DNA of 53,084 bases from an uncultured bacterium (GTDB lineage Bacteria; Acidobacteriota; Polarisedimenticolia; CBDVAL01), in the NCBI GenBank assembly GCA_965371955.1, contig CBDVAL010000001.1, forward strand, positions 1 to 53,084, in the 5' to 3' direction. Shown piece after piece: positions 10,733 through 46,252 of this stretch (its first letter is position 1; the number at the start of each line of letters is the position of its first letter). A program made the translations under genes and the position numbers. The notes beneath the pieces are model-generated. The model saw only the letters and a list, made by a program, of their open reading frames with translations, was not told the DNA's origin and searched no databases.

Positions 10733-10844
10733 TGTCCGCCCGCTCAATCTCACCTAAACGCGTGAAACCCCTGCACTTGCAAGACGCCGCCGCAGAACCG
10801 TCCGAGGAGGCTCCCTTCCCAGCCCGTCGGCGAAATCCTGGATC

Positions 10845-10873
10845 TGGACACCCAGCACGGGATCTCGTATGTT
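10845..10873 (+). promoter_or_regulatory. Candidate sigma70-type promoter for the FG-GAP mega-protein gene
   Basis: TGGACA (10845-10850), 17-nt spacer, TATGTT (10868-10873). A GGGGGA Shine-Dalgarno lies 5 nt before ATG 10913. Confidence 0.35.
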
Positions 10874-10912
10874 AGTAGCGCTCCGCAACAATCAGAGTCC
10901 AGGGGGATCACC

Positions 10913-20618: not shown

Positions 20619-20771
20619 CTCCCCCTCCGGAACACGGTCTCTGCCTCGAAGGATCGCGCCGCCTGGCGAATGAGCTCGCAGATCCTGGACCCGCAACCGA
20701 AAACCCATACAAACAAAGGGCTTTCATCCGAAGGAACCCTTTCTTCCATGGCGCGAAGGAACCTTTGAGAG

Positions 20772-20777
20772 TACTAT
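20772..20777 (+). promoter_or_regulatory. Candidate -10 box (TACTAT) upstream of the S8 mega-protein gene
   Basis: TACTAT matches 5 of 6 positions of TATAAT. The -35 is weak (TGGCGC at 17-nt spacing). It lies in the only AT-rich patch before the gene. Confidence 0.25.
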
Positions 20778-20835
20778 TGTGTCTGAATCAGGGGGAACCC
20801 GCCGGACGGCCGCCCGGCTGCTGAGGAGGGGGTTC

Positions 20836-29800: not shown

Positions 29801-31212
29801 CGCTGGCAACTCTGGTTCACCTGCACTCCAACGATCCCGGCCGGCCCGTCACCACGATCCCGGCGCAAGGGACGGCTGCTGGGCCGCCGGTCGCCATGCT
29901 CGAGCCATCGTCGGTGCAGGCGGCGCTGCCTCCGGACGATCCTCGCGTGCGCGTCAAGACCGTCCGGCTCAGCAACACCGGCAGCAGCGAGCTGGAGTGG
30001 AGCATCAGTCGTCTGACCGCCCGGGTAGCCGCCGCCTCGTCCTGGGCGCCGGAGCCCAAGGGAGACGAATCGCGGAACGGTGACGGTCTGCTCTCCGGTC
30101 CTCGCGCGGCCCGGACCGGCGGCCCGGACCCCGACGGCTACCGATTCCGCGACAGCGACGAGCCGGACGGGCCGCTGTTCTTATGGGTGGAGACGGCCCG
30201 CAGCGGGACGGCCCTGGCTGTGGACGGGGACGACGAGACGTCGGAGCCCGTCCCGCTGGGGTTCGAGTTCCCGTTCTACGACGAGACGTTCACGCAGCTG
30301 CGCATATGCACGAACGGCTGGCTCAGCTTCAGCTCGGACGGGACGCAGTTCAGCAACCCGGACGCGCTGCCCAGCACCAGCCCGGCAGTCCCTCGGTTCC
30401 TGCTGGCGCCGTTCTGGGATGACCTCGACCTGCGCGGCGAGCGCCGCATCAGCTACACGAATGACGCCTCGCGCTTCATCGTGCAATTCACCGGCGTCGA
30501 CCGTTACGCCAGCGATGCCGACCTGACGTTCCAGGTGATTCTCTACCCCAGCGGCCGGATCCTGTTCCAGTATCTCTCCCTGTCCGGCGTCCAGGACAGC
30601 GCCACCGTGGGCATCCAGAACGGTGACGGAACCGCCGGGCTGCTGGCCGGCTACAATGACGGCTACGCTCACGACGGGCTGGCCGTGGAGTTCGCGCCGG
30701 TTCCCGAGTGGGTGCGTATCGAGCCGGCATCGGGTGTAGTGCCCGTCTCTGGCCACACGGACATGGACGTCGTGTTCACTTCCGCCGGTCTCGGGCCGGG
30801 TGACTTCCATGCCGTGCTGGAGGTGTACACCAACGATCCGGCTCATGAGACGCTGGGCGTGGACGCGGTCCTGCACGCCGCCCTGGTGCCACTGGACCGC
30901 TTCGAGATCCTTCCCAGGACGGTGAAGCGTGCGTCGGGCCGCGGGTCCATCCGGATGGACCTACAGCTCCCGCCGGGGTTGGACCCGCGTGACGTGCTCC
31001 TGCCCAGCGTGACCGTGAACGGGTCGCCGCTGCCCGAGGGCGTGCAGGTGTCGTTCCGTGACGGGAACGATGATGGCGTCGAGGAGCTCACCCTGCGCCT
31101 GGACCGGGAGTCGTTCCTTGCCATCGCCGGCGAGAGCGGCATCGTGACGGTCCTCGGTGAGGTGCGCGAGACCACCTGGTTCAGCGGAACCTCCAGTGTC
31201 CGCATCCGCTGA
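20836..31212 (+). CDS. Giant secreted subtilisin-family (S8) serine peptidase, about 3458 aa: I9 propeptide, S8 catalytic domain, Fn3-like domain, then repeated Ig-like (ASH/choice-of-anchor-D-type, SNDP motif) domains and an unknown module, with nested Kelch-like and NIDO-like domains
   Basis: Catalytic triad contexts: VVDTGIDYTHPDL (Asp), HGTHVSGIAGA (His), SGTSMSTPHVSGAAALL (Ser). I chose ATG 20836 because GAGGAGG lies 6 nt upstream and it yields a signal peptide (MVRSPHRGRKWLAWAVLIMVAAALLGTPALA). The track start is GTG 20779. Confidence 0.9.
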   Translation: MVRSPHRGRKWLAWAVLIMVAAALLGTPALAPGPPSSPANHPLPPHRPGEILIKFRHQASPSQRQAIRTDLGAGTRRQLLRGIEHLRLGRGVSIEEALERYRRHPHVLYVEPNYLIQVAVLPDDVEFDRQWGLHNRGQTEGTPGADIGAQEGWNISTGRRDVLLAVVDTGIDYTHPDLADNIWHNPGEIPGNGLDDDGNGFVDDVRGWDFVANDADPMDENGHGTHVSGIAGAAGDNGVGVAGVAWKVSLVPLRALDANGFGDVADSIEAFAYAISIGVRIVNNSWVAPHSQALEDAVQATEDADVLMVAAAGNFGFDLEVDPVYPASFPNDNIVVVTTSNDDDRRPFFASIGSASVDLAAPGVNIFSTVLGGSYGFNSGTSMSTPHVSGAAALLMSVAPNLPASSARRILVQTAEPAEAFSGLTVSSGTVHIGNALSSLDTMAPGAVDDLSVEESFSNSLAMSWTATGDDGEQGAALAYDLRIATTPLDEATFLTGTRIHGVPPPGQAGSRESFEIPDLLHGTSYHVALRAEDDWGNAGPVSNVVTATTLPAPSASLTPITFEASLFTGQSVGTVITLHNAGPGTLDWSIPPPHVIGPTGLEVENVAGVFPAAGRLAAGSAQEITVTLDALGLDGGLYDGTVEIESNDPARPQLLHSSQLTVIDAADMRVRGAQALLESTAPYFFGGGQTSHALPITLPVGGGGTLELAANGNFGRIHELATLHVEGLVLGPVGGQGIDCAPTTAGFPLSPDELQDLVADGVVEVVVQNTITVEVLCNINEHTVRLHYRGPFDHIDFGMVRSGQEREIPFEVENRGSLDLTLQLQLDGSGFSIPWTERTVPAGSTLEVPILFAPGAAGPVQGSLVLSGNDPDTPEFLTTLQGVGEAPPVLEINPELLESTLQAGAGGAHTVTLTNAGGESMDFSLELPAEASFLTAQPEAGIIAAGASQDVTVLLDSSGLTSGLHSAVLAVHTNDPDRPVADIVVNLTVLGGPRLVTSGDLDFGSVVVGATAGLALAVSNPGNDPLEIAAVDSSLPDVIASPASLVLMPQDSATITVQFTPSGTGAIDGTLTVLSNDPDSPATALAVSGSGQEAPSLQVEPVEIQATLLENRSESRVVTLSNAGTGELAYVLTLTPAEPAFASLDVSSGLVPPSSSANVSVLLDSTALAPGPYEAELHVTSNDPATPLLIVPVRLTVVGTPDLFLPGAALMLESQREFFDTNETTTHSLSLTVPPAGEGLVELTADGDFGASFETATASVDGQLLGSAGGAGQDCSVAVASFTLDADRLAELAGDGVISFQVQNSDEVAPFCIANLHRVRLSYRSAPDRLSFDPTFVGGRRDQPFAVENRGTASLEVSLGTDTPDFTPSAGSLSIAPGETRMISVTFAPGSAGPKSGNLLLDSNDPDMPQVLVPLQGMAEPAPVLSVTPPALDVILSEGGQSVGSLQLSNDGGNPLEFSIRRQLLPPVFSQGDPDHPTLGAVERTFQLLSPSPEPLSCIVEDDARGHLYGQAHQGDTFYRYLAVDDAWERLTTAPLNASGGCGAALLDDTVYTAYGFDSSALGAYDIEAGRWSMVDNPLILPSANIASDGERFLYIASGSQLLRIDPISGENTLLSRPPFAFTRLGGLRHSEGILYGHRGSGRTQAASYDIAADQWAILPQLSEGALLGGAFNPVDEEYLAYGPNQGQNLYRYSLRTGAWDATTIPFFSVGHGGMGWLTLPVPGVYFVEGQNGTGLARWVTGSLFASVSPSSGIIPPGSSQSVGVTFDGTGLAPGLHPMNLRIASNDPLRPETATPAELTILGTPELSFVQQALTVESGKLYFTAGGRTEHHLTLDLAPIGGATLALTLEGDFGQAGETATLMVEGLDFGPTQSDGGDCAPVTARFDLSAGNLAVLAADGVLDAEVQNAPGVELLCPVNRHTLRLFYNGKPEVDFGSSFLGVAVERSLTLANTGSATLEAHGLHTDRTEFSVTPQAVTLPPGGSSEISLVFLPGQVQAFDGRLILDSNDPNASHLEIILRGTGVDLPQVGVDPPGLQATVNAGNREQQTLRILNTGGGPLEFSVTLESADNGVPPSDYALLVVSSGIVPAGSHAEVPLVLHGQGVPPGEYLARIVVASNDLQLPRLEVPVTLNIVGAANLQLGGEETTQESRQEYVDAGAFTEHAFALQEDLVGPVLLELESSGDFGNSVENAVVNIEGTVAGSAGNFGEDCISWTRSFVVSRAEMEPIRIDGRLEVRVENTAAVDPRCPDNDHIVRLRTVAPLQRLDFGSVIVSTAQGRTILVDNSGSTALEVTSISSTAPEFSTSSNSLVVAPGASEALTVFFSPPSEGTFDAVMLVDSNDPDGVLEIPLSGSGIGAPRITVDPTLLFTTVAQQEEATLAVQISNGGSGPLEFRIEIPSAGDAFAQAVPAMGTVPPGSTTEVGVRFLAGSLEAGFHLSELQILSNDPDTPAVLVQALLSVVGAPDLSIRESLTLQSIQEFSFPGALTRHSFPVRSMPAGSGTLELIVGGDFSDPAEFAMVQVQGLPRGSLGNTGTDCTTASTDLELTPAEMTSFGQSGNLEVVLTNTEAVQPICSDSFHSVALRYQALVQELDFGEVFLGEQRTLMVDFVNQGGEELQVTALGLDDPAFSISGDPFSLGPGASRALEITFRPDQTGPLGSSLAVESNDPGKEALLTVEGIGREPPVLEIVPAQLESEIFQADSEVQTMVLSNTGGSELSFSLEVDPAVTNTYLQVEPSAGTIPAGGVQLVTVTFDAGEIAPGLFETIILATSNDPEGPAVAIPVALTVIGRPVVQLPRERVTVESAQSYFLQGDRTFHQLPITVPPAGDGMFFITADGDFGLPAEIASASAEGRFLTSVGGLGRDCTAGTGVAPILLADLQALAADGMVELEVENSPVVEAKCEVDQHRIRLVYDGEPFLLDFGTVFVGVEKEHPFLVSNSGSGVLEIASAATDSPEVTVIGLPATILPGESAEILAVYRPSTPGPLATLVHLHSNDPGRPVTTIPAQGTAAGPPVAMLEPSSVQAALPPDDPRVRVKTVRLSNTGSSELEWSISRLTARVAAASSWAPEPKGDESRNGDGLLSGPRAARTGGPDPDGYRFRDSDEPDGPLFLWVETARSGTALAVDGDDETSEPVPLGFEFPFYDETFTQLRICTNGWLSFSSDGTQFSNPDALPSTSPAVPRFLLAPFWDDLDLRGERRISYTNDASRFIVQFTGVDRYASDADLTFQVILYPSGRILFQYLSLSGVQDSATVGIQNGDGTAGLLAGYNDGYAHDGLAVEFAPVPEWVRIEPASGVVPVSGHTDMDVVFTSAGLGPGDFHAVLEVYTNDPAHETLGVDAVLHAALVPLDRFEILPRTVKRASGRGSIRMDLQLPPGLDPRDVLLPSVTVNGSPLPEGVQVSFRDGNDDGVEELTLRLDRESFLAIAGESGIVTVLGEVRETTWFSGTSSVRIR
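25222..26070 (+). other. Kelch/beta-propeller-like insertion nested inside an A-type Ig-like domain of the S8 mega-protein
   Basis: Five to six blades of about 45-50 aa (e.g. TFYRYLAVDDAWERLTTAP, LGAYDIEAGRWSMVDNP, AASYDIAADQWAILPQL, LYRYSLRTGAWDATTIP). They are inserted between ...NPLEFSI and ASVSPSSGIIPPGSSQ..., the two halves of an A unit. Confidence 0.55.
30010..30707 (+). other. NIDO-like (GYxFxDSDEP ... FPFY ... NGWLSF) insertion nested inside the last A-type Ig-like domain
   Basis: DGYRFRDSDEPDGPLFLWVE...PLGFEFPFYDETFTQLRICTNGWLSF...APFWDDL is inserted between ...SELEWSI and WVRIEPASGVVPVSGH.... Confidence 0.5.
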
Positions 31213-34403: not shown

Positions 34404-34412
34404 AGGAATCGC

Positions 34413-36056
34413 GTGAACCGAACCGAACAACCGGATGTGGCCATCCTGGGCGGCGGACTGGCAGGGCTTTGCCTGGCCATCCAGCTCAAGCGGGAGCGCG
34501 CCGGGACGTCGGTCATCGTCCTGGAGAAGGCCCCCCATCCGCCGCCGGCGGCGGCCCACAAGGTGGGTGAGTCCACGGTGGAGCTGGCGGCGTTCTACTT
34601 CAGCAAGGTCCTGGGGTTGCAAGAGCACCTGGACCGCCACCAGTTGCGCAAGTACGGGCTGCGTTTCTTCTTCCGCAGCAGTGATCCCTCGGAGGACATC
34701 GCCCGCCGGGTGGAGGTGGGAGCCAGCGACTACATGCCGACACCGAGCTACCAACTGGATCGGGGGCTGTTCGAGGCGTTCCTGGCGGAGCACGCCGCCA
34801 CGCTGGGTGTGGAGTTCGTCGACTCCGCCGCCGTCTCCGGGGTGGAGTTGTCGGACGAACCGGCCAGGCATCGCATCCAGTACCGCCACGACGGCAGCGC
34901 GAAACAGCTCCGGCCACGCTGGGTGGTGGATGCCAGCGGCCGGACCAGGCTCCTGGCGCAGCAGCGGAATCTCTCGTCTCCGGTGAGCCACCGCGCCAGC
35001 GCCGTCTGGTTCCGCGTGCAGACACGGCTGAACATCGACGACTGGAGCAGCGCCGCGTTGTGGCGCCGCGACGGCAGGTCGGAAAGATTCTCGCGCTGGT
35101 ACAGCACGAACCATCTCATGGGCCCCGGATACTGGGTGTGGCTCATCCCGCTGGCGTCGGGCGCCACCAGCGTCGGCATCGTCACCGATGAGGCCATGCA
35201 TCCCGTGGGCGGGTACAACACGCTGGACGACGCCATGGACTGGCTCCGCCGGCACGAACCGGCCTGCGCGCAGCACATCGAGCCACACCGCGAGCGCATC
35301 CTGGACTTCAAGGTGATCCGCAGCTACTCCCGCGATGTCACCAGCGTGTTCTCAACGCAGCGCTGGGCGCTCACCGGCGAGGCCGGCGTCTTCGTGGACC
35401 CGTTCTACTCCCCGGGCAGCGACTTCATCGCCATGAGCAACAGCTTCGTGGCCGATCTGATCCGTCGCGACATGGAAGGCGAGCCCATCGCCAAGCGCGC
35501 CCGCATCTACGACCAGCTCTACCTGTCGTACAGCCGCAACACGTTCCCGCTGTTCGAGGGGCAGTATCCCCTGTTCGGCAACCCCCTGGTCATGCCGGTG
35601 AAGGTGGTGTGGGACTTCGCCGCCTACTGGACCTTCCTGGCCTTTGTCTTCTGCCAGGGCAGACTGTGTGACCTGAGCCTGTTCGTCCACACGCGCACCG
35701 GCGTCGGGCGATTGCGCCTGCTGAACGAGAGGATGCAGCGCTTGCTGCGCCAGTGGCATGAGGTGGAGCGGACGACACCGGAACCGGTGTTCCTCGATCT
35801 GACCCGGTTGGAGGTCCTGCCCCGCCTCAACGGCGGACTGACGGACGCGCTCTCCGACGAGGACTACCTGGCGCGCCTGGAGGAGAACATCACCCTGATG
35901 CACTCCCTGGCCGCGGAGATCGCCTGGGTCGCCGGCAACCGTCACCCGTCGCTTCCCGTCGCCGAGTTGGGCGGGGATCAGCCGCCTGCCAGCGCGCACC
36001 TGGAGAAGCTGTTCGACGCCCTCGCCCTGGCTCAGCGCTGCCGGCCGGGCCTCTAG
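34413..36056 (+). CDS. Flavin-dependent halogenase family protein (tryptophan-halogenase-like FAD enzyme)
   Basis: GxGxxG (VAILGGGLAGLCLA), HKVGEST lysine region, WxWxIP motif (GYWVWLIPL) and FVDPFYSPGSDF. GTG start with GAGGAA 4 nt upstream. Confidence 0.8.
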   Translation: MNRTEQPDVAILGGGLAGLCLAIQLKRERAGTSVIVLEKAPHPPPAAAHKVGESTVELAAFYFSKVLGLQEHLDRHQLRKYGLRFFFRSSDPSEDIARRVEVGASDYMPTPSYQLDRGLFEAFLAEHAATLGVEFVDSAAVSGVELSDEPARHRIQYRHDGSAKQLRPRWVVDASGRTRLLAQQRNLSSPVSHRASAVWFRVQTRLNIDDWSSAALWRRDGRSERFSRWYSTNHLMGPGYWVWLIPLASGATSVGIVTDEAMHPVGGYNTLDDAMDWLRRHEPACAQHIEPHRERILDFKVIRSYSRDVTSVFSTQRWALTGEAGVFVDPFYSPGSDFIAMSNSFVADLIRRDMEGEPIAKRARIYDQLYLSYSRNTFPLFEGQYPLFGNPLVMPVKVVWDFAAYWTFLAFVFCQGRLCDLSLFVHTRTGVGRLRLLNERMQRLLRQWHEVERTTPEPVFLDLTRLEVLPRLNGGLTDALSDEDYLARLEENITLMHSLAAEIAWVAGNRHPSLPVAELGGDQPPASAHLEKLFDALALAQRCRPGL

Positions 36057-36059
36057 AAC

Positions 36060-37283
36060 TCAGGCGCGCTCCAGGAACAGCCAGGCCGCTGCGCCGCCCG
36101 AGGCATGCGTGCAGCCCAGCAGGGTTCGTGGCGCATCCAGCGGCGTCCCATCGTGCGGCACGATGCCGAGCGACGGGTCGGGCTCGCGGAACCCGGCGGT
36201 GGGCCCGAACGTGGCGCCCTCCATGGCCAACAACAGGGATGCGAGGTAGCCGCCGCCGTACTCGCCGGTGACGGCCTTGGGCGCCAGGATGGGCGGCAGC
36301 TTCTCCTCACCCCACAGCGCCCGCAGCGTCAGCGCCTCCAACCGATCGCCGGTCACGGCGCCGGACGCGCCGGAGACGATGCGCTGGATCTCGCCGGGCT
36401 GCAGCGACAGGCGGCGCATGGAGGCCGCCATGGAACGCGACAGACCCTGGTGATCGCGGCCCCAGGAGGTTGCCGTCGCCGACGGGTCGTTGGCCTGTCC
36501 CCCGCCACGGATACGCGCAAGAATGCGGGTGTTGTCTCGAAGAGCATCCTCCTCACGCTCGAGCAGGAGCATCGTCGCACCGTCGCCCATGAGAAAGCCG
36601 TTGCGTCCCCGGTCGAACGGACGTGCACTTTCCTCCTCGCCGTCCCGGGCCACGGCCAGCGCGCCGAAGCGGTCCAGGACCGAATGCGACAGAGGATCGT
36701 ACTCGTCCACGACGCCCACCAGCGCCATGTCGGCCCGCCCCGACTCCACCTCGGCAGCACCGCGCAACACGGCGATGAGCGCACCCGCCTCGCGCTGCGT
36801 GAACGTGAAGTTGCCCTCCCGAGCGCCGAAGGCAATGGCGATCTGCGCCGCAGGAGCATTGGCCACCGACTCGGCGAACAGGAAGGGTGACGTGGCCTCC
36901 GGGCCCGAGTCGTTCAGCTCGCGCAGGATGCGCTCGCACAGCGAGGCCGGGCCCAGGCAGGTGGCCATGGAGACCGTCATGCGGCGGCGCCCCAACGAAT
37001 CCTCGTCATGGCCCGCATCCGCCCACGCCATGCGCGCCGCGCCCACGGAATAGCGCGATGACGGACTCATCCGTCGCGCTATGCGCCCGGGAACCCACTG
37101 GCGCAGCTCGCCGGCGTCAACCTGTGCCGCCGTGCGTGCCGAGTCCAGGCGGTGGTAGCCACCGGAACGATCCACCGGCGAGGCCAGTTGCCTGGACTCG
37201 CGCAGCGCCTGCGCCAGACCGGGCCGGCCGCAGCCACCAGGGCCCACCGTCCCCATCCCGGTGATCACCACGCGCGCGCTCAC
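36060..37283 (-). CDS. Beta-ketoacyl synthase-like protein lacking the His-His catalytic pair (chain-length-factor-like KS partner)
   Basis: KS fold (VVITGMGTVGPGG...). The positions matching the KS His residues read GGGQANDP and KAVTGEYGGGY, and the Cys-loop reads MATCLGPAS. GTG 37283 overlaps the upstream KS stop (GTGA). The alternative start is ATG 37301. Confidence 0.78.
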   Translation of the reverse strand: MSARVVITGMGTVGPGGCGRPGLAQALRESRQLASPVDRSGGYHRLDSARTAAQVDAGELRQWVPGRIARRMSPSSRYSVGAARMAWADAGHDEDSLGRRRMTVSMATCLGPASLCERILRELNDSGPEATSPFLFAESVANAPAAQIAIAFGAREGNFTFTQREAGALIAVLRGAAEVESGRADMALVGVVDEYDPLSHSVLDRFGALAVARDGEEESARPFDRGRNGFLMGDGATMLLLEREEDALRDNTRILARIRGGGQANDPSATATSWGRDHQGLSRSMAASMRRLSLQPGEIQRIVSGASGAVTGDRLEALTLRALWGEEKLPPILAPKAVTGEYGGGYLASLLLAMEGATFGPTAGFREPDPSLGIVPHDGTPLDAPRTLLGCTHASGGAAAWLFLERA

Positions 37284-38536
37284 GGTCCTTCCCCATTCCA
37301 TCGCGACAGGATCAGCGCCGCGTTGGCGCCGCCGAAACCGAGGTTGGTGGAGAGCACCGTCCGGACATCCTTCATCACACGCGGCGTCGATCGCACCAGA
37401 TCCAGCGACATCGCCGGATCCAGCGGGGGCTCGGCCGGAACCGGATGCGCCTCGCCTTCCTGCAGGCAGAGCACGCAGACCACCGTCTCCAGGGCGCCTG
37501 CGGCGCCGAGAAGGTGGCCGAACAGCGCCTTGGAGCAGGTCACCGGGATACCGGCTGCGCGCTCGCCGAACACCTGGCGGAAGGCGTTCCACTCCGCGGG
37601 GTCGTTGTGCTCCGTGCCGGTGGCGTGCGCGTTGATCAGATCGACGGCCTCCGGCTCCATCCCCGCGTCGCGCAGGGCCAGGCGGATGGCGTGGGCAGCG
37701 CCGTCGCCGTCCGCATCGGGCGCGGTCATATGGCCGGCATCACAGGAGGTGCCGAAGCCGGACACGGTTGCCAGCGGGCGAGCCCCCCGGGCGCGAGCAT
37801 GCGGCAGCGATTCCAGCACCAGCGCACCGGCGCCCTCGCCCAGGGACATCCCGGCCCGCCGCGCGCGGAACGGACGACAGGGCTCGAGGTCCACGGCGCG
37901 CAACGAGTTGAATCCGGCGTAGGTGAGCTCGCAGAGAGAATCCGCGCCGCCCGCCAGCGCCACCTCCACGGCCCCCGAGCGCACCGCCTGGAGCCCCAGC
38001 CCGACGGCCATGGAACCCGATGCGCATGCCGTGGAGAGCGTCTCCACCGGTCCGCGCACCTGGAAGTGCCGCGCCACCGCGGCACTGGGCCCATCGTTGG
38101 CCGCGGAGGACAGCGCTCCCACCCTGGCACGCCGCGTCGGCTGCTGGCCGTGGGTCTCGGCCAGCATGCGTTCCAGCTCGAACATGCCGCCCGTGCTGCT
38201 GCCCCAGTAGACTCCCACATGCGCTTCGGAGAGCAACGCCCCCAGGTCTGCGTGCTGCACGGACTCGTGCACGGCGGCCACGGCGAAGCGATCCGACCAG
38301 GACAGGCGGCGCGCCTCCTGCGCCGTGAGCGGCAGCGTGGACGGGCCGTCCGGCACCTGGGCCGCCACATGCGAGCGGTGCCGGCTGTGATCGAACCGGT
38401 CGAAGCCGCGGATGGCGGTACGCCCGGCGCGCAGACCGGCCCACAGCGCGCGCCGGCCCCACCCGAAGCCGCTCACCGCGCCGATGCCGGTGACCACGAC
38501 CATGGGTGCCGGCGGGCTGTCAGTTCTGGACGACAT
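37280..38536 (-). CDS. Beta-ketoacyl-[ACP] synthase (FabF/KS-alpha-like, complete Cys-His-His triad)
   Basis: VVVTGIGAVSGFG. Active-site Cys in LSTACASGSMAVG. His in INAHATGTEHND and SKALFGHLLGAAGA. Confidence 0.9.
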   Translation of the reverse strand: MSSRTDSPPAPMVVVTGIGAVSGFGWGRRALWAGLRAGRTAIRGFDRFDHSRHRSHVAAQVPDGPSTLPLTAQEARRLSWSDRFAVAAVHESVQHADLGALLSEAHVGVYWGSSTGGMFELERMLAETHGQQPTRRARVGALSSAANDGPSAAVARHFQVRGPVETLSTACASGSMAVGLGLQAVRSGAVEVALAGGADSLCELTYAGFNSLRAVDLEPCRPFRARRAGMSLGEGAGALVLESLPHARARGARPLATVSGFGTSCDAGHMTAPDADGDGAAHAIRLALRDAGMEPEAVDLINAHATGTEHNDPAEWNAFRQVFGERAAGIPVTCSKALFGHLLGAAGALETVVCVLCLQEGEAHPVPAEPPLDPAMSLDLVRSTPRVMKDVRTVLSTNLGFGGANAALILSRWNGEGP

Positions 38537-38804
38537 GGGCGGTAGCCTTGCACCTCTCCACCAGGTCGGCCAGGGTGCTCACCGATGCGAACGTCTTCGG
38601 CCCGGCCTCGCTGGTGGGGATCTTGATATGGAACGTCCTCTCCAGCCCCACGAGGAGTTCGAGGGCGTCGATGGAGTCGAGACCGAGGCCGCCCTCGAAG
38701 AGCGGCTGATCATCGCCGATCTCCTGCGGAGACAGACCGTCGAGGCGGAGACTCTCCACCACGAGTCTCTTGATGCGATGGCGGGTGTGGCGGTTCTTCG
38801 TCAT
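38520..38804 (-). CDS. Acyl carrier protein
   Basis: GGLGLDSIDALELLVGLE contains the phosphopantetheine-attachment Ser motif. About 94 aa from the internal Met (MTKNRH...). The 3' end overlaps the KS start by 17 nt. Confidence 0.85.
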   Translation of the reverse strand: MTKNRHTRHRIKRLVVESLRLDGLSPQEIGDDQPLFEGGLGLDSIDALELLVGLERTFHIKIPTSEAGPKTFASVSTLADLVERCKATAHVVQN

Positions 38805-38911
38805 GCCGGGTTTCGTTTGCTGGCGCGGGAACACTTGGTCTCTTCGGAGCGGCATCATCTATACTAGCATATCGGTTTGACCATGCACCGGCAGGATCTC
38901 GCAAGGAAACC

Positions 38912-40348
38912 ATGACACACCCCATCCTGGAGAGGTTCGGGCGACTGCTGGAACAGGCGCCCGACAGGACCCTGGTGGCCAATCGCGCGCGGTCCACTTC
39001 GGTGGCGGGCGTCCACGAGATGGCCCGCCGCGCCGAGCGGCGCCTGAAGGATACGTCCCTGCGCGCCGGAGGGCTGCTGGGACTGGTGGCTCCCGCGGGA
39101 CCCGGCTTCCTTGCCGCACTGCTGGCGCTCCGACGGCTGAAGCTGGCCGCACTGCTCCTCGACCCGGACACTCCGCTGAGCGAGCAAGCCAGGGTGGCCC
39201 GTGCCCTGGGAGCACCGTCGCTGCTGACCCTGACATCGGCATGGCCGGAGGCCGAGACGGACTGGGTCATCTCCGCGGTTCCCGGGGTGACTCGACCGGC
39301 CGAGCTGAACGGAGTGGGCGTGGTCAAGCTCACCTCGGGCTCCACCGGCGAGCCCCGGGGCATCGCCACCAGCGAGAGAGCGCTGGTCAGCGATGCCGAT
39401 GCCCTCAACCGGACCATGGGCATCACGCCGGACGACCGCCTTCTGTCCGGCATACCCATGTCGCACTCCTACGGGCTCTCCACCCTGGCCGTCACGGCTC
39501 TCACCCAGGGGACGACGCTCGTCCTGCCGGATGGCCTCGCCCCGTTCGAGCCGTTCCTGGCCGCCGAGGAGCTCGGGGCCACGGTGTTCCCCACCGTCCC
39601 CGCCTTCCTGCACGCGCTGCTGCGCCTGTCGGACCCACCTGCGCAGCCGGCGCGGCTACGGCTGGTGATCTCCGCCGGCGCTCCGCTGACGCCCTCCACG
39701 GCGGTGGAGTTCCGCCGCCGCTTCGGGCTGCCCGTCCATGTCTTCTACGGCGCCAGCGAGTGCGGCGGCATCTGTTACGACCGCGAGGGTTCCGCCGGCG
39801 AGCGCGGCACCGTGGGCACACCGGTGGAGGGTGTCCGCGTCACGCTGGAATCGTCGCACGGATCACTCCCCGGCGCAGTGGTGATCTCCTCGCCGGCGGT
39901 GGCCGAAGGGTACCTTCCCGGGGCGGACAGCAGCCTGGGCGGCGGATGCTTCCGCAGCAAGGACCAGGCGGAATGGCGCGACGGCGAGCTGGCCCTGCGG
40001 GGGCGTCGGGAGGACTGGATCAACGTCGGCGGGAAGAAGGTCAACCCACGGGAGGTGGAGGCCGTTCTGAAGCAACTGGACGGTATCGAGGACGCCGTGG
40101 TGTTCGGCTTCTCCATCCCCGGGCGCGAGGGAGAGGCCGTCCGCGCCGTGGTGGCCGGCACGGGTGTCCCCGGCTATCTGGAAGTGGTGGCCCGCTGCCG
40201 CGACAGCCTGGCGGCGCACAAGGTGCCGCGCAGTGTGCTGGGCGTCCGTGAGATCCCGCGCACCTCGCGAGGCAAGCTCGACTGGAGGCGCATCCGCGCG
40301 CTGGCGCCCGGGCAACGGGGAGGGACTACTCTCCTGGAGGAAGAGTAG
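38912..40348 (+). CDS. AMP-dependent synthetase/ligase (adenylate-forming enzyme, acyl/aryl-ACP or -CoA ligase)
   Basis: LTSGSTGEPRGI (A3), YGASECGG (A5), DWINVGGKKVNPREVE (A8), C-terminal PRTSRGKLD (A10 Lys). AGGAAA RBS before the ATG. Confidence 0.85.
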   Translation: MTHPILERFGRLLEQAPDRTLVANRARSTSVAGVHEMARRAERRLKDTSLRAGGLLGLVAPAGPGFLAALLALRRLKLAALLLDPDTPLSEQARVARALGAPSLLTLTSAWPEAETDWVISAVPGVTRPAELNGVGVVKLTSGSTGEPRGIATSERALVSDADALNRTMGITPDDRLLSGIPMSHSYGLSTLAVTALTQGTTLVLPDGLAPFEPFLAAEELGATVFPTVPAFLHALLRLSDPPAQPARLRLVISAGAPLTPSTAVEFRRRFGLPVHVFYGASECGGICYDREGSAGERGTVGTPVEGVRVTLESSHGSLPGAVVISSPAVAEGYLPGADSSLGGGCFRSKDQAEWRDGELALRGRREDWINVGGKKVNPREVEAVLKQLDGIEDAVVFGFSIPGREGEAVRAVVAGTGVPGYLEVVARCRDSLAAHKVPRSVLGVREIPRTSRGKLDWRRIRALAPGQRGGTTLLEEE

Positions 40349-41291
40349 CTTGTCGCCATTCTGCGTCGGCGATGCGGCTTTCGGGATGGAGGCCGGCCCA
40401 GACGAACCAGTACATCGTCCTTACCGGGATCTCCTCGTTCCTCGCCCAGTCCGGCCCCCCCGAGGAGAACCACGCGCGTGTGGACCCGGTGGATCCCTGG
40501 TGCTCCACCACGATCTCCCGATGGTCCCAGCGCAGGCGCACGACCTGGCGGCCGCTTCCACCCGGCAGGGCCACGGCCACGGCATCCGAACCGTCGCCGG
40601 CGGCAAAGCCGGCCACCTGGGTCTTGCCGGGTAGCCTCGGATCCGGGTTCTCCGTGCCCAGCATTCCCAGCAGGTGCGGCGCCCGGGGATAGAGGACGTG
40701 CTTGAGCTTCCTCCGACCCTTCCAGGGCAGGGCGAGAGTGTCGGGGTGGCGCTCCTTCCAATCGCCCCAGGTGGTCATCTCCGAGACCACAGGCTCGAGG
40801 GCGTTCCCTTCCAGATCACCACGAATGGATCGCCCGGAAGGTTGCGCCCACAGGCTGCCGGTCTGTCGATCCTCGAGCACCAGGGAGTCGTTCCAGAGCT
40901 TGCCGGAATGGACGAAGTCCAGCACGCGCTGGTTCACGCTGCGACCGTAGACCACGGCCGCCCCGGCCAGCGTTCACCAGCTGGCGACGAACGGTTCTCC
41001 TGCATCGCCGTTCACGATCTCGTGACGATCCAGCAATGCCACGGAAATAGCCACGGGTGTATTGCCGCTCAGGAAGCCCAGGATCTTCTCGGAGGAACGC
41101 ATGAGCCGGTCCGCCTGGTCGCCCTTGACGAACTCCGGATCGCTGAGGGACGGGATATCCTCCCGCGGTCGCATGGTGACCAGCCGGCTGTCATGAAGAT
41201 CCTCGGTCTGCAGCGGCTGCGGCAGACAACCGAGCATGACGGCCAGCAGACCCGGAAGCGCCACCTTGGCGCCACGACGGAACGTGCGCAC
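40326..41291 (-). CDS. DUF3179 domain lipoprotein interrupted by a single in-frame TGA (40974-40976): candidate selenocysteine codon, or a pseudogene
   Basis: The two track ORFs (40974-41291 and 40326-40955) are in the same frame. The junction reads ...HEIVNGDAGEPFVASW-TGA-TLAGAAVVYGRSVNQRVLDF...SLVLEDRQTGSLWAQ. The N-terminus has a lipoprotein-like leader (LLAVMLGC). Confidence 0.6.
40936..40976 (-). promoter_or_regulatory. TGA codon plus an immediately downstream imperfect GC-rich hairpin (SECIS-like candidate)
   Basis: mRNA: UGA-ACGCUG-GCCG-G-GGC-GGCCGUG-GUC-UA-CGGU-CG-CAGCGU. Drawn by eye: a 6-bp lower stem, a 4-bp middle stem, a 3-bp upper stem and a 7-nt apical loop. Confidence 0.25.
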
Positions 41292-41347
41292 GGATGGGTT
41301 CGTCCTCCTCTGATTCTACGCAACCGTCGCCGCCGCCGGGTTATTCC

Positions 41348-42970
41348 TCAGCGCGTGATGCGCGACAGCATGTTGCGGCGCAGGACCACCGAGGCGGCGA
41401 GGACCCCCGACATCGCGGCGCTGGTCACGCCCACCACCACCACATCCTGGCCCGTGAGCAGGAGGTTTCTTACCGGCGTGTGGGTGCGTAGCCATGGAAG
41501 CCGGAAACGCTCCGGCGTGTGCTCCAGGCCGTAGATCTCCCCGTACGGGTGGTTGCTGAAATGGCGGGTGGACAGCGGGGTGGATAGCTCCGAGTACTCG
41601 ATGTGATCGCGGGCTTGCGGCGCCACCTCCAGGAACTTGCGCAGCAGACGGTCCGACAGGCGCTGCTTGAACGCCTCGTAGTCCGGACCCCGTCGCTGCC
41701 AGCTGGTGTCGCGCCACGATGCGAACCACTCGTACGGGGCCACGCCGATGACCTGCACCGTGGCCTTCCCCGGCCGCGTCCGCTTCCAGTCCGGATCCTT
41801 GGCCGAGGGGAAGCTGATGTAGGCGAACGGCGGCTCGGCCTCCGGTTCCCGCGCGTAGCGCTCGATGAGGCCGTCGAAGTCGTAGCTGTCGTAGATCCAG
41901 TAGTTCCAGCGCGGCAGATCCAGTGCCGCGTCGGAGCGATCCAGGCCGAGATAGAGGCAGACGTGCGCGTAGGACGGTTTGACGCGCTGCAGGTCGTGCA
42001 GGATGCGGCGGCGCCACGGCCGCTCCTCCTGCACCAGCCGCTGGAACGTATTGCGCGCGCTGGCATTGCTGATCACCACAGGGGCGCGCAGCTCGTCGCC
42101 GTTGGCCATGCGCACCCCCACCGCCTTGCCCCGCTCCACCAGGACGCGGTCCACCTCGGCTGTTGTCGCGACCTGGCCGCCGTGTTCCTGGATGACAGAC
42201 AGCACCGCCTCGTGAATGCTCGATGCACCGCCGCACGGGTAGTTGCCGCCGTCCAGGTAGTGCCGGGCGAGGAGCACGTGCATGGCGAAGCTGCTGCGGC
42301 GTGGGGTCAGACCGTAGTCGCCGCACTGGGCGCACAGGACGCTGATCAGCCTGTCGTTGTCGGTGATGCGGCGCAGCATGTCGTAGGTGGTGACGTCCGA
42401 GTACTTGAGGAAGCCGCGACGCAGGAAGTAGCCGGCCCAGCAGCTCAGGAAGCGCGGCATGGCCCGCTCGCCGAAGTACATCTGCGTGCGCAGGCTGAAC
42501 GAGTCCAGCATCTCGAAGTAGCGCTCGATGGCGACGCGTTCGGCGGGGAAGTAGTCGATGAGCCGCTCGCGCTGCCGGTCGGCCCCGGCAAGGAACTCGT
42601 AGCGCTCGCCGGCGATGATCGCGATGTCGTAGATGTCGCCCAGGGACGCCCATCGCAGCTTGCCACCGGTGATGTAGTCGAAGACCTGGCGCCCCATGGA
42701 CTCCTCGCTGTGCACCTCCCCGACGTAGTGCACACCCACGTCCCAGACAAAGCCCTTCCTGTGAAAGGTGTGGGTGAAGCCACCGGTGACGTAGTGCCGC
42801 TCCAGGACCAGCACCTTCTTGCCGGCCTGCGCAAGCAGCGAAGCGGCGCTCAGGCCGCCCATGCCGCTGCCGATGACGAGGACGTCATAGCTCGCGCGCG
42901 CCAGCCCCGAGTGGTAACGAATGGCCTCGCCGGTCCGGGAAGCGTGCGTTTCTTCTACCAGATCGCTCAT
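41348..42970 (-). CDS. NAD(P)/FAD-dependent oxidoreductase, phytoene desaturase (CrtI) / RetSat-like family
   Basis: Dinucleotide fold YDVLVIGSGMGGLSAASLLAQAGKKVLVLERHYVTGG. C-terminal ...LLLTGQDVVVVGVTSA. I chose the Met at 42970 (GGAG upstream). Confidence 0.85.
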   Translation of the reverse strand: MSDLVEETHASRTGEAIRYHSGLARASYDVLVIGSGMGGLSAASLLAQAGKKVLVLERHYVTGGFTHTFHRKGFVWDVGVHYVGEVHSEESMGRQVFDYITGGKLRWASLGDIYDIAIIAGERYEFLAGADRQRERLIDYFPAERVAIERYFEMLDSFSLRTQMYFGERAMPRFLSCWAGYFLRRGFLKYSDVTTYDMLRRITDNDRLISVLCAQCGDYGLTPRRSSFAMHVLLARHYLDGGNYPCGGASSIHEAVLSVIQEHGGQVATTAEVDRVLVERGKAVGVRMANGDELRAPVVISNASARNTFQRLVQEERPWRRRILHDLQRVKPSYAHVCLYLGLDRSDAALDLPRWNYWIYDSYDFDGLIERYAREPEAEPPFAYISFPSAKDPDWKRTRPGKATVQVIGVAPYEWFASWRDTSWQRRGPDYEAFKQRLSDRLLRKFLEVAPQARDHIEYSELSTPLSTRHFSNHPYGEIYGLEHTPERFRLPWLRTHTPVRNLLLTGQDVVVVGVTSAAMSGVLAASVVLRRNMLSRITR

Positions 42971-44465: not shown

Positions 44466-45725
44466 ATGAAACCGTTGATCCTGCCCCTGCTGGCGCTACT
44501 GCTATCCCTCCCGGCTGCCGGCGCCGGCGCCCCATGGAAGGTGCAGGAGATCCCCTCTCCGGCCGGATCGTCCAGCGGTGAGCCGTTTCTCACCATGCGA
44601 GGACGGACCGTCTATTTGAGCTGGCTGGAGAAGGGGCAGTCCGGCGAACACAGCCTGCGCATGGCGGCGTGGGACGGCGCGGAGTGGAGCAAGCCCTCCA
44701 CCATCGTCACCAGCGACTCGCTGTTCGTCAACTGGGCGGACTTCCCCTCTCTCATCGCGCTGCAGGACGGCTCGCTGGCGGCCCACTGGCTGGCCAAGGC
44801 GGGCGAGGGCACCTACGCCTACCACGCCTGGATGGCCCTCTCCGCTGACGGCGGCACGAGCTGGACGGCGGCACGGCGGCTGCACAGCGACGTCTCGGAG
44901 ACCGAGCACGGATTCGTGACGCTGCTGCAGGGCGACGACGGGCTGGCTGCGGCCTGGCTGGACGGCAGGAACTATGCCGCTGCCGAGGCCGGCGGCCACG
45001 GCGGGTCGGAGGAGATGATGCTGCTGTTCGGCTCCAGCACCGACGGCACGTTCGGCGGTGAGACCGTGCTGGATTCCCGGGTGTGCGATTGCTGTCAGAC
45101 GGCCGGTGCCCCCATTCCGGGCGGCTTCTTCATCGCCTACCGGGACCGCAGCGAGGACGAGGTGCGTGACATCTCGTACGTGCGCCAGGTGAACGGGCGG
45201 TGGAGCGAGCCGCGCACGTTGCATGCCGACGGCTGGAGGATCGCCGCGTGTCCGGTGAACGGTCCCGCGGTGGCCGCGAACGGCAACCACGTGGCGGTGG
45301 CATGGTTCACTTCCCCCCGTCCGCTGGGCAAGGACGGCAGCAAGGGCGAGGCGAACCGCCGGGTGCAGGTGATCTTCTCCTCCGATGCCGGCAAACACTT
45401 CGGCGCTCCGGTGCGGCTGGACCGGGATCATCCGCTGGGCCGGGTGGATGTACGCTGGCTGGACGAGGAATCCGTGTTGGTGGTCTGGCTGGAGAAGACC
45501 GGTAGCGGCCAGGCGGAGATCCGCGCGCGCCGCGTCCACGCCGACGGCCGGCCGGAGGAGACCTGGACGCTGACCCGGACCCGGACCGCCCGCGGCAGCG
45601 GCTTTCCGCGGCTGGTGGTCACCGGCCACGGTGTCGTGGCGGCATGGACGGAGGCCGGAGAGCCATCGCAGGTGCGGCTGGCGTTGCTGTCCCTGCCCCC
45701 CGGGCGGAACAAGGGGCGGCCATGA
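44466..45725 (+). CDS. Secreted BNR/sialidase-like beta-propeller protein
   Basis: Signal peptide MKPLILPLLALLLSLPAAGAGA. BNR motifs SADGGTSW and SSDAGKHF. Cys motifs VCDCCQT and ACPVNGP. Confidence 0.7.
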   Translation: MKPLILPLLALLLSLPAAGAGAPWKVQEIPSPAGSSSGEPFLTMRGRTVYLSWLEKGQSGEHSLRMAAWDGAEWSKPSTIVTSDSLFVNWADFPSLIALQDGSLAAHWLAKAGEGTYAYHAWMALSADGGTSWTAARRLHSDVSETEHGFVTLLQGDDGLAAAWLDGRNYAAAEAGGHGGSEEMMLLFGSSTDGTFGGETVLDSRVCDCCQTAGAPIPGGFFIAYRDRSEDEVRDISYVRQVNGRWSEPRTLHADGWRIAACPVNGPAVAANGNHVAVAWFTSPRPLGKDGSKGEANRRVQVIFSSDAGKHFGAPVRLDRDHPLGRVDVRWLDEESVLVVWLEKTGSGQAEIRARRVHADGRPEETWTLTRTRTARGSGFPRLVVTGHGVVAAWTEAGEPSQVRLALLSLPPGRNKGRP

Positions 45726-46252
45726 GCCATCGCGCGCCTGTCCCGGCGCTGATGCTGGTGCTCCTGCTGAGCGGCGCGACCGCCGGCGAGGGCAAGCCCG
45801 TCGAGCTGCAGGACCGGGCGGCACTGGACTTCCAGGCCCCGACGCTGGACGGTGGCGAGCTGCAGCTCTCTTCTCTGCAGGGCAAGGTGGTGCTGTTGAA
45901 CTTCTGGGGCATCTGGTGCATCCCGTGCCGCAAGGAGATCCCCAAGCTGCAGGCGATGTACGAGGAACTCCGCCACCGGGGGCTGGAGATCGTGGGAATC
46001 GATGTGGGCGATGAGGCCGAGGCAGCCAGGAAGTACGTGGCCCAGCAGTCCATGTCGTATCCGGTCTTGTTGAGCGAAGACATCGCCGAGGACTACGACG
46101 TGGAGGTGTTCCCCACCAACGTCATCATCGACCGCGCAGGCCGCATCCGTCATGTGGAGGAAGGCTACGAGGACGGCACGACAGCCGTGCTGCGCGACAT
46201 CATCGAGCGGCTGCTGGCGCAGGAGCCGCCGGGCACAGGGGACAGGCCATGA
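45722..46252 (+). CDS. TlpA-family thiol:disulfide oxidoreductase (secreted thioredoxin-fold protein)
   Basis: Signal peptide, then [21 protein letters not shown] (CxxC). The ATG overlaps the upstream stop (ATGA). Confidence 0.85.

Follow-up and report, generated by a model that had tools for sequence, protein, structure and literature searches.

DUF3179 (PF11376) is included in a catalogue of bacterial selenoprotein families with the motif UxxC/T (PMC9312934, 2022) and was catalogued again with the same motif in 2026 (PMC13188914); both sources, reviews by Zhang and colleagues, credit the DUF3179 selenoproteins to Zhang and Gladyshev 2007 (PMC1976440). The gene described here lies on the minus strand of a 53,084-nt stretch of DNA, called the window throughout, from an Acidobacteriota metagenome-assembled genome (MAG). 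Like the catalogued DUF3179 selenoproteins, it encodes a full-length PF11376 domain, with one predicted selenocysteine (Sec) per protein at the first Cys of the CPLC motif and a putative SECIS element directly downstream in the coding region. In contrast to their UxxC/T motif, the window protein carries U-T-L-A, with Ala at the fourth position and Thr in place of a nearly invariant Pro. This motif is the sole new point, and the gene represents neither a new selenoprotein family nor a new recoding mechanism.

Comparable systems outside the family are the thioredoxin-fold selenoproteins with UxxC or CxxU motifs (DsbA-like, Prx-like, AhpD-like), which likewise use Sec for one Cys of a CxxC-type motif and which the window protein also resembles in being probably extracytoplasmic. 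Unlike these proteins, DUF3179 is predicted from a structural model to have a fold that is not thioredoxin-like, and the window protein has no partner Cys. Regarding the recoding signal, the canonical bacterial SECIS (bSECIS) of the E. coli fdhF type is likewise a stem-loop within the ORF just past the UGA, with a small apical loop bearing G and then U/G in its first positions. The window hairpin is, however, unrelated to the fdhF element in sequence, no bulged U was found in it, and its SelB site is putative; its GGUC-type loop presumably resembles that of fdhF.

Our main reading, to which we assign a probability of about 0.9, is that the window contains an intact DUF3179-family selenoprotein gene in which UGA106 is read as selenocysteine and not as a stop. 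The gene is intact, the codon occupies a Sec/Cys column, the TGA and the hairpin are conserved, the hairpin covaries, and the region past the TGA is under purifying selection. A first-pass annotation had listed the locus as a candidate new selenoprotein and had known of no listing of DUF3179 among established selenoprotein families. The conserved TGA, the covarying hairpin and the purifying selection uphold "selenoprotein gene", while "new" has to be dropped, DUF3179 being listed in both catalogues (PMC9312934, PMC13188914).

Gene organization and the predicted Sec codon

Two minus-strand ORFs (40974..41291 and 40326..40955) form a single frame broken only by an internal TGA (40974-40976), and the translation across the junction reads ...HEIVNGDAGEPFVASW*TLAGAAVVYGRSVN..., both as described in the first-pass annotation. 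The features of the locus are as follows:

40326..41291, minus strand: complete gene for the predicted DUF3179 selenoprotein; 321 sense codons (Sec106 among them), then the TAG stop
41304..41309, minus strand: AGGAGG, putative Shine-Dalgarno-like hexamer 12 nt 5' of the GTG, read by eye
41289..41291, minus strand: start codon GTG; ATG at the matching codon in the near-identical contig L005
41226..41291, minus strand: probable signal peptide with lipobox-like MRTFRRGAKVALPGLLAVMLG-C22 (...AVMLG-C22), judged by eye
40377..41162, minus strand: DUF3179 domain, residues 44-305, PF11376 match
41010..41024, minus strand: HEIVN motif, His90-Asn94, 15 residues N-terminal to Sec
40974..40976, minus strand: UGA, codon 106, predicted to encode Sec; aligned with the first CPLC Cys; local motif U-T-L-A
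40936..40973, minus strand: extended 38-nt hairpin, MFE and centroid prediction for the window only
40941..40961, minus strand: predicted core hairpin of the bSECIS, nt 16-36 counting from the U of UGA, GCGGCCGU-GGUCU-ACGGUCGC
40326-40328, minus strand: stop codon TAG, end of the DUF3179 gene

Against PF11376, the 321-aa read-through protein scored 142 bits with an E of 3.4e-41 (gathering threshold 27); the match is end to end, running through the TGA from profile position 2 to position 292 of 292. No further lesion was found in the window gene, which has no frameshift and a full-length domain. Within the HEIVN motif, the family alignments show no variation at H90, V93 and N94 and almost none at E91. 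The N-terminus preceding C22, read by eye, is lipobox-like under the PROSITE-type rule, and homologues also have N-terminal hydrophobic segments. According to the Cys inventory, Cys22 is the sole Cys of the window protein.

When the protein was aligned with 29 full-length homologues, the TGA column corresponded to the first Cys of CPLC and was occupied by Cys in 28 of them, and the second Cys was Ala in the window protein. This bore out the placement that the first-pass annotation had made from the family consensus, and the Sec/Cys pair proposed on that basis was found again in 12 GTDB loci with TGY in the TGA column. Relative to the DUF3179 consensus, the window site keeps HEIVN and the first position (as Sec) and has T for P and A for the second C. 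The nearly invariant positions altered nearby are D95G, P107T and C109A, and the changes D95G and C109[A/I] are common to the window and the orthologue L002. UTLA departs from the catalogued UxxC/T, having no Cys or Thr three residues past Sec. Additionally, the base 3' of the UGA is A in the window versus C in all 68 other aligned Sec forms. Both this base and the altered positions count against the Sec reading.

The AF2 model of a Cys homologue (P0005) was all-beta, with a pLDDT of 85.7. A PDB fold search with this model returned no significant match, its best local resemblance being to a NirD/Rieske-like beta domain at a non-significant E of 0.33, and no sequence relatives were found in the PDB. 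Synteny with the window that included AMP-binding and ACP genes was limited to loci L001 and L002. Gene neighbourhood as a guide to function was rejected as uninformative, the recurrent neighbours corresponding to SAR202 housekeeping synteny or to generic ECF sigma and GNAT genes.

The hairpin downstream of the UGA

Folding of the window sequence gave an upper stem of 8 bp (9 with a closing G.U) and a dG of -12.8 kcal/mol; the apical loop, which spans 40949-40953 and begins 20 nt after the UGA, is GGUCU (or GUC where G.U closes it). In the extended hairpin predicted for the window sequence, nt 4-8 pair with nt 37-41 in a lower stem, ACGCU/AGCGU. The 38-nt hairpin after the UGA with its lower stem, as drawn in the first-pass annotation, was recovered in this predicted fold, but the apical loop had been misplaced: "GGCCGUG" belongs to the upper stem as its 5' arm, and the predicted apical loop is GGUCU. 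The consensus rules for bSECIS elements specify an apical loop 3-9 nt long with G in its first two positions, a stem of 4-16 bp, a spacing of 16-37 nt and an MFE <= -7.5 (PMC13188914), and the window hairpin conforms to all of them. Its stability was unexceptional against shuffled sequences in this 67% GC DNA (z-scores -0.5 and 0.0), and generic bSECIS-like hairpins followed 5-9% of the 1174 TGA triplets in the window (8.9% for those of at least 7 bp). The weight of the hairpin rests on comparison with relatives, since single-sequence folding was not significant in this GC-rich DNA.

The family hairpin consists of 7 bp and a 5-nt loop in a fixed register, nt 17-23/29-35 from the U of UGA, and 98.8% of the cells in this register were paired among 69 Sec forms. 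Compensatory changes altered both sides in five of the seven pairs (90 cells). None of 500 shuffles matched this result, and controls with a slid register paired at only 24-53%. The apical loop was always N-G-[U/G]-N-U in the Sec forms. The same register in 12 Cys forms was 58% paired, no better than shuffles; judged from these alignments, the hairpin is specific to Sec forms and absent from Cys forms. A covariance model (R1) trained without the window and without its close orthologues L001 and L005 placed the window site as the top match across the whole window (14 bits, E about 0.012). Family-register pairing was present at one of the 1174 window TGA triplets, namely the DUF3179 site. A search of the window for Rfam families yielded no match.

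Conservation of the TGA and competing explanations

Related sequences were compared at the TGA codon, and TGA was found at the matching codon of the orthologue L002 (about 51-53% aa identity), in the same column of L006 and L007, and in 68 of 80 related GTDB loci, the other 12 having TGY. The TGA loci span Chloroflexota, Acidobacteriota, Methylomirabilis, Planctomycetota, Nitrospinaceae and Tectomicrobia. The contig L005, identical to the window in its N-terminal part and sharing 92% aa identity over the C-terminal ORF, served for estimating selection: dN/dS 3' of the TGA was 0.034/0.151 = 0.23, which indicates purifying selection there.

Regarding the Sec machinery, none of selA, selB, selD and tRNA-Sec was found within the 53-kb contig, which counts against the Sec reading, and no other selenoprotein gene was found in the window. 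Two candidates in the window were rejected, a thioredoxin-like gene at 45506-46252, whose motif is WCIPC and contains no Sec, and a 93-nt "tRNA-Pro(cgg)" called by ARAGORN and considered as tRNA-Sec-like, which is a false positive antisense in a giant ORF. Among the relatives, one locus (L059) has tRNA-Sec on the scaffold carrying the DUF3179 gene, SelD (TIGR00476, 343 bits) is encoded 3-9 kb from the DUF3179 gene in 14 loci, and in one locus (L044) the SelD gene itself contains a UGA.

The fresh pseudogene that the first-pass annotation had offered as its alternative would be a Cys-form DUF3179 gene killed by a recent nonsense change from TGC or TGT to TGA. One base change would be enough, the Sec machinery is not visible in the window, and several nearly invariant residues are altered around the site. 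However, two of those alterations, D95G and C109[A/I], also occur in L002, which has the TGA in common with the window, as do the 68 of 80 distant relatives. The TGA is also the sole lesion in a gene with a full-length Pfam match, the region past it evolves at a dN/dS of about 0.23, and the SECIS hairpin is kept in the exact family register. The conservation of the TGA, the covarying hairpin and the downstream purifying selection led us to reject the pseudogene as highly improbable. An error of sequencing or assembly at this codon is conceivable for a MAG contig such as the window, given that single-base errors occur, but the TGA and its flanks are identical in L005, an independent ENA assembly, and four Logan assemblies of the L002 orthologue also have the TGA, so that the chance of such an error is close to nil.

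Decoding of the UGA independently of selenium, by genome-wide sense reassignment or by SECIS-independent near-cognate read-through (Trp/Cys), would be compatible with the Sec machinery of the MAG not being seen in the 53-kb contig. Nevertheless, as the first-pass annotation had already observed for neighbouring genes, TGA serves as an ordinary stop: it ends 18 of the 29 high-GC3 ORFs in the window, the gene directly upstream of the DUF3179 gene terminates at a TGA (41348-41350), and no other window gene has an in-frame TGA. Plain read-through also gives no role to a conserved, covarying G-loop hairpin at SelB-type spacing, whereas Sec insertion needs one, and we regard selenium-free decoding as very unlikely. 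The remaining explanation, two genes, the first for a 105-aa N-terminal peptide and the second for a 209-aa protein starting at GTG 40955, agrees with the gene callers, which split the window gene into two ORFs (P0001 and an upstream 105-aa gene), as they do with most relatives. In contrast, the Pfam domain runs unbroken through the junction, the downstream protein would have neither signal peptide nor conserved motif, and the 18-nt spacer is in frame and codes for conserved family residues. Moreover, N-truncated gene calls are a known artefact for selenoproteins, and of the 150 nearest cluster representatives about 95 are truncated in this way, beginning 5-18 residues past the Sec column. These observations make a pair of genes extremely improbable.

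Proposed Sec insertion and the Uxx[A/I] clade

For the reading of UGA106 as selenocysteine, the standard bacterial pathway suggests that the mRNA hairpin 20 nt past the UGA would act as a bacterial SECIS. By analogy, its GGUCU loop would bind SelB together with GTP and Sec-tRNA(Sec), SelB would bring the Sec-tRNA(Sec) to the A site of the ribosome, where the UGA lies, and translation would then run on to the TAG at 40326. The product would be an exported, probably lipid-anchored, all-beta protein in which Sec substitutes for the first Cys of the CPLC site. An intramolecular selenenylsulfide would be impossible in the window protein. With Ala or Ile in place of the second Cys and no further conserved Cys in the window gene and a mainly Acidobacteriota clade, the selenol would have to work on its own; it could be a nucleophilic redox centre, for instance, or could coordinate a metal or metalloid jointly with the conserved His-Glu-x-x-Asn residues nearby. 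The cited selenoprotein literature reports no experimental Se incorporation into any DUF3179 protein.

The window gene falls within a Uxx[A/I] clade that is mainly from Acidobacteriota and has the forms UPLA or UPLI. Its members are the window gene, L002, the Acidobacteriota loci L008, L010 and L011, L006 (a metagenome contig) and a single Planctomycetaceae locus; a further Acidobacteriota locus, L019, stands beside the clade. The motif is UPLI in L002, where the second Cys is likewise lost, and UPLA in the Acidobacteriota forms. No resolving Cys is present anywhere in the mature protein of this clade. As a separate observation, codons +6 and +10 in the clade are reverse complements of each other, an amino-acid covariation attributable to the predicted SECIS lying inside the ORF.

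We suggest tentatively, at somewhat less than even odds, that the Uxx[A/I] clade may form a "lone-selenol" branch of DUF3179 with a function of its own, one missing from the UxxC/T catalogues. If so, the mature protein would have Sec as its sole chalcogen with a redox or metal-binding role, and the chemistry of this Sec would be unlike the presumed dithiol-type exchange of CxxC/UxxC sites; the selenol might, for instance, be a peroxidatic nucleophile or might bind a metal or metalloid. The N-truncated representatives imply that DUF3179 selenoproteins are systematically mis-annotated in Acidobacteriota, Chloroflexota and other phyla, the Chloroflexota concerned including the cultured SAR202 member 'Ca. 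Lucifugimonas marina'. The DUF3179 gene marks this Acidobacteriota MAG as a probable selenocysteine user and adds to the DUF3179 family a UxxA variant that lacks a resolving Cys.

Reading frame and domain at the TGA codon

The two minus-strand ORFs of the DUF3179 gene (40974–41291 and 40326–40955) share a single reading frame. Translation from 41291 to 40326 gave 321 sense codons and one internal stop, the TGA at 40974–40976, surrounded by the residues ...LLDRHEIVNGDAGEPFVASW*TLAGAAVVYGRSVN..., which agrees with the one interrupted gene described in the first-pass annotation. With the stop read as X, the protein matched the Pfam model PF11376 (DUF3179) with 142 bits (cut-off 27; E = 3.4e-41), while NCBIfam contained no model for it. 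In the alignment with 29 full-length homologues, 28 had a Cys in the TGA column, which corresponds to the first Cys of the near-invariant CPLC motif; the second Cys position is Ala in the window protein, and both points had been noted in the first-pass annotation. The N-terminus, MRTFRRGAKVALPGLLAVMLG-C, looks by eye like a lipoprotein signal peptide and is annotated here as putative. The elements of this locus are as follows:

40326–40348: 23-nt overlap of the DUF3179 3′ end with the 3′ end of the convergent AMP-binding gene
40929–40976 (−): best covariance-model match for the recoding element
40944–40946: codon +10 after the TGA (nt 31–33, counted from the U of UGA)
40949–40953: apical loop GGUCU, beginning 20 nt after the UGA
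40956–40958: codon +6 (nt 19–21)
41348–41350: TGA, ordinary terminator of the gene upstream of DUF3179

All of the nearest database proteins were "short" and comprised only the C-terminal half, and on their contigs an upstream TGA explains this truncation. Locus L005 matches the window exactly in the N-terminal part and at 92% identity over the C-terminal ORF. The junction reads ...TFAAAW*PLIHAAVVYSREV... in L001–L004, four Logan assemblies of one orthologue (51–53% identity to the window), and AVTW*PLAHSGVVY and AVTW*PLCYTGIVY in L006 and L007, respectively, from lineages with approximately 37% identity. Screening GTDB at one genome for each species recovered 80 related loci, 12 of them with TGC or TGT in the Sec column; the carriers of TGA included Dehalococcoidia and other Chloroflexota, Acidobacteriota, Methylomirabilis, Planctomycetota, Nitrospinaceae, and Tectomicrobia.

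These comparisons bear on the alternatives to recoding. A fresh pseudogene created by a nonsense TGA, the other option raised in the first-pass annotation, is unlikely, given that the same codon occurs in the orthologue of 51–53% identity and in 68 of the 80 GTDB loci, that dN (0.034) and dS (0.151) between the window and L005 downstream of the TGA give a ratio of about 0.23 and therefore indicate purifying selection, and that the gene contains no second lesion. A sequencing error at this codon is likewise improbable, as L005, an independent ENA assembly, has the same TGA and flanks and L001–L004 also carry TGA. There is little to recommend a reassigned code with UGA as sense, since TGA is a regular stop in the window, ending 18 of the 29 high-GC3 ORFs, the gene upstream among them, in line with what had been noted for neighbouring genes. 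Two separate genes meeting at the TGA are equally hard to reconcile with a PF11376 match that runs through it over profile positions 2–292 of 292, so that the domain is continuous. We consider it highly probable (about 0.9) that the DUF3179 gene is genuine and intact and encodes Sec, and that its bacterial SECIS (bSECIS) is canonical and conserved across the family.

The probable recoding hairpin in the family and in the window

When 69 distinct Sec-form sites were aligned by counting from the U of UGA, nt 17–23 paired with nt 29–35 around a 5-nt loop at a fixed position. Standard pairs occupied 98.8% of cells, and both-sided changes were found at 5 of the 7 pairs (90 cells), with compensatory examples at 18–34 (GC/UA), 20–32 (GC/CG), 21–31 (CG/AU/UA), and 22–30 (AU/GC). 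None of 500 shuffles reached the observed pairing or covariation score, and sliding the partner by 1–3 columns as a control left only 24–53% pairing. The 12 Cys forms showed 58% pairing at this register, no better than shuffles. The loop was always N-G-[U/G]-N-U (CGUGU 33, CGGGU 21, AGUCU 5, UGUAU 4, GGUCU 3, and others).

A 38-nt hairpin with the lower stem ACGCU/AGCGU was predicted after the window UGA, as the first-pass annotation had described, but the GGCCGUG named there as the apical loop lies in the upper stem, as part of its 5′ arm. This stem comprises 8 bp (G16–C36, and C17–G35 through U23–A29), or 9 with a G24.U28 closure; the 21-mer core folds with −12.8 kcal/mol in the family register, and the hairpin agrees with the published bacterial SECIS consensus in every criterion. 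A covariance model was trained on 67 sites, with the window and two close orthologues (L001, L005) left out. Run on both strands with filters off, it ranked the site at 40929–40976 first in the whole window (model positions 1–48; 14 bits; E of roughly 0.012), and its next-best match lacked the hairpin. The window hairpin alone was no more stable than shuffled sequence (z-scores −0.5 and 0.0), and hairpins of at least 7 bp that satisfy the generic bSECIS rules followed 8.9% of the 1174 TGA triplets of this 67% GC contig; thus, the weight of the hairpin argument is comparative. Pairing in the family register was found at this site only among those triplets.

In most Sec forms, codon +6 was the reverse complement of codon +10 (GGA/TCC 25, GGC/GCC 18, GCT/AGC 5, GCC/GGC 4), a relation absent from the 12 Cys forms. 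The residue at +6 (Gly or Ala) thus covaries with that at +10 (Ser, Ala, or Gly), a covariation that would be dictated by the SECIS stem. Two Terriglobia Cys forms with TGC (L039 10283–10330 and L080 10322–10369) kept 6 of the 7 hairpin pairs and grouped in the tree with Sec forms, outside the main clade of Cys forms; both may have switched from Sec to Cys recently. Another Cys form, L056, was nested among Sec forms.

Selenocysteine machinery and genomic neighbourhood

Neither tRNA-Sec, selA, selB, or selD nor any other candidate gene with an in-frame TGA was found within the 53,084-bp window. The AcrB protein encoded there has its nearest named relatives in Terriglobia, Acidobacteria, Acidoferrales, and Vicinamibacteria, which assigns the contig to Acidobacteriota. 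ARAGORN called a 93-nt tRNA-Pro(cgg), which is almost certainly spurious and a product of GC-rich coding sequence: it lies antisense within a 3512-aa ORF, its stems are mismatched, it has no T-loop consensus, and it has no Rfam match. Other carriers of Sec forms are Sec users. A Tectomicrobia scaffold (L059) bears both tRNA-Sec and a UGA-containing DUF3179 gene, and SelD lies 3–9 kb from the Sec-DUF3179 gene in 14 Dehalococcoidia loci, including L044, from the complete "Ca. Lucifugimonas marina" JH545 genome. SelD was detected by tblastn with the E. coli SelD sequence as query, and the match was confirmed by NCBIfam TIGR00476 (343 bits; cut-off 125); in the L044 gene, the catalytic position is itself an in-frame TGA (TCAG*AGK). 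Since housekeeping genes (apt, HAD, MazG) lie in between, this linkage seems to reflect synteny within the clade rather than a functional operon. The gene neighbourhood of DUF3179 loci was not conserved across lineages, and the AMP-binding and ACP genes of the window were syntenic only with the orthologue contigs L001/L002. The features concerned are:

10766–15655 (+): 1629-aa FG-GAP/DUF4215 protein, giant and of secreted type
20674–31212 (+): 3512-aa S8 subtilase with many HYDIN/ASH/DUF1573-type Ig-like repeats, giant and of secreted type
30067–30159 (−): rejected tRNA-Pro(cgg) call
34404–40348: small lipid/polyketide-type set (halogenase-like FAD enzyme, two ketoacyl synthases, ACP, AMP-binding enzyme)
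45506–46252 (+): thioredoxin/AhpC-TSA-like exported protein with WCIPC, a Cys form and not Sec
L059, 2–98 (+): tRNA-Sec, anticodon UCA
L059, 3803: TGA of the DUF3179 gene
L044, 14188–15258 (−): SelD

A UxxA/I clade within a known selenoprotein family

DUF3179 is already tabled among the prokaryotic selenoprotein families, with a single Sec in a UxxC/T motif (PMC9312934, 2022; PMC13188914, 2026), so the proposal of a new selenoprotein family is unsupported. Both papers, by Zhang and co-workers, cite Zhang & Gladyshev 2007 (NAR 35:4952), whose outline and new-selenoproteins section do not use the DUF name. In contrast to the catalogued motif, the window protein (UTLA) belongs to a neighbour-joining clade of seven forms with UTLA, UPLA, or UPLI, together with L002 (UPLI), the Acidobacteriota loci L008, L010, and L011, the metagenome contig L006, and the Planctomycetaceae locus L030 (all UPLA); L019 (UPLA, Marinacidobacterales) stands beside it. 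In these proteins and L019 the second Cys is not conserved: the window protein has a single Cys, the lipobox-like Cys22, and Cys is absent altogether from L011 and L019, so the selenol of this clade would have to act alone. Cys counterparts among cluster representatives were CPLA (two) and CPIA (one).

For the Cys homologue P0005, AlphaFold2 gave a confident model (pLDDT 85.7; pTM 0.81) that was mostly beta and had no significant PDB neighbour. A NirD/Rieske-like beta domain was its best local likeness (TM 0.54 over 82 columns, with probability 0.89 and E = 0.33) and serves as a lead only; PDB sequence and profile searches found nothing. With low confidence, we predict an extracytoplasmic redox or metal-binding selenol site that acts together with the conserved H-E-x-x-N.

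The C-terminal ORF was also searched exhaustively with HMMER against 1.84 billion cluster representatives; approximately 95 of the best 150 began 5–18 residues after the Sec column, and an upstream TGA was present in every such case checked at the DNA level. Two further proteins, P0156 (1587 aa) and P0198 (1004 aa), had six and four separate stretches, respectively, matching the C-terminal half, and may be repeat proteins with several DUF3179 units, or else fused calls. With family and mechanism both known, novelty is low: the window gene adds a member to the DUF3179 selenoproteins, whose Sec forms are routinely split or truncated by gene callers, and the "lone selenol" clade (UxxA) varies the family only modestly.
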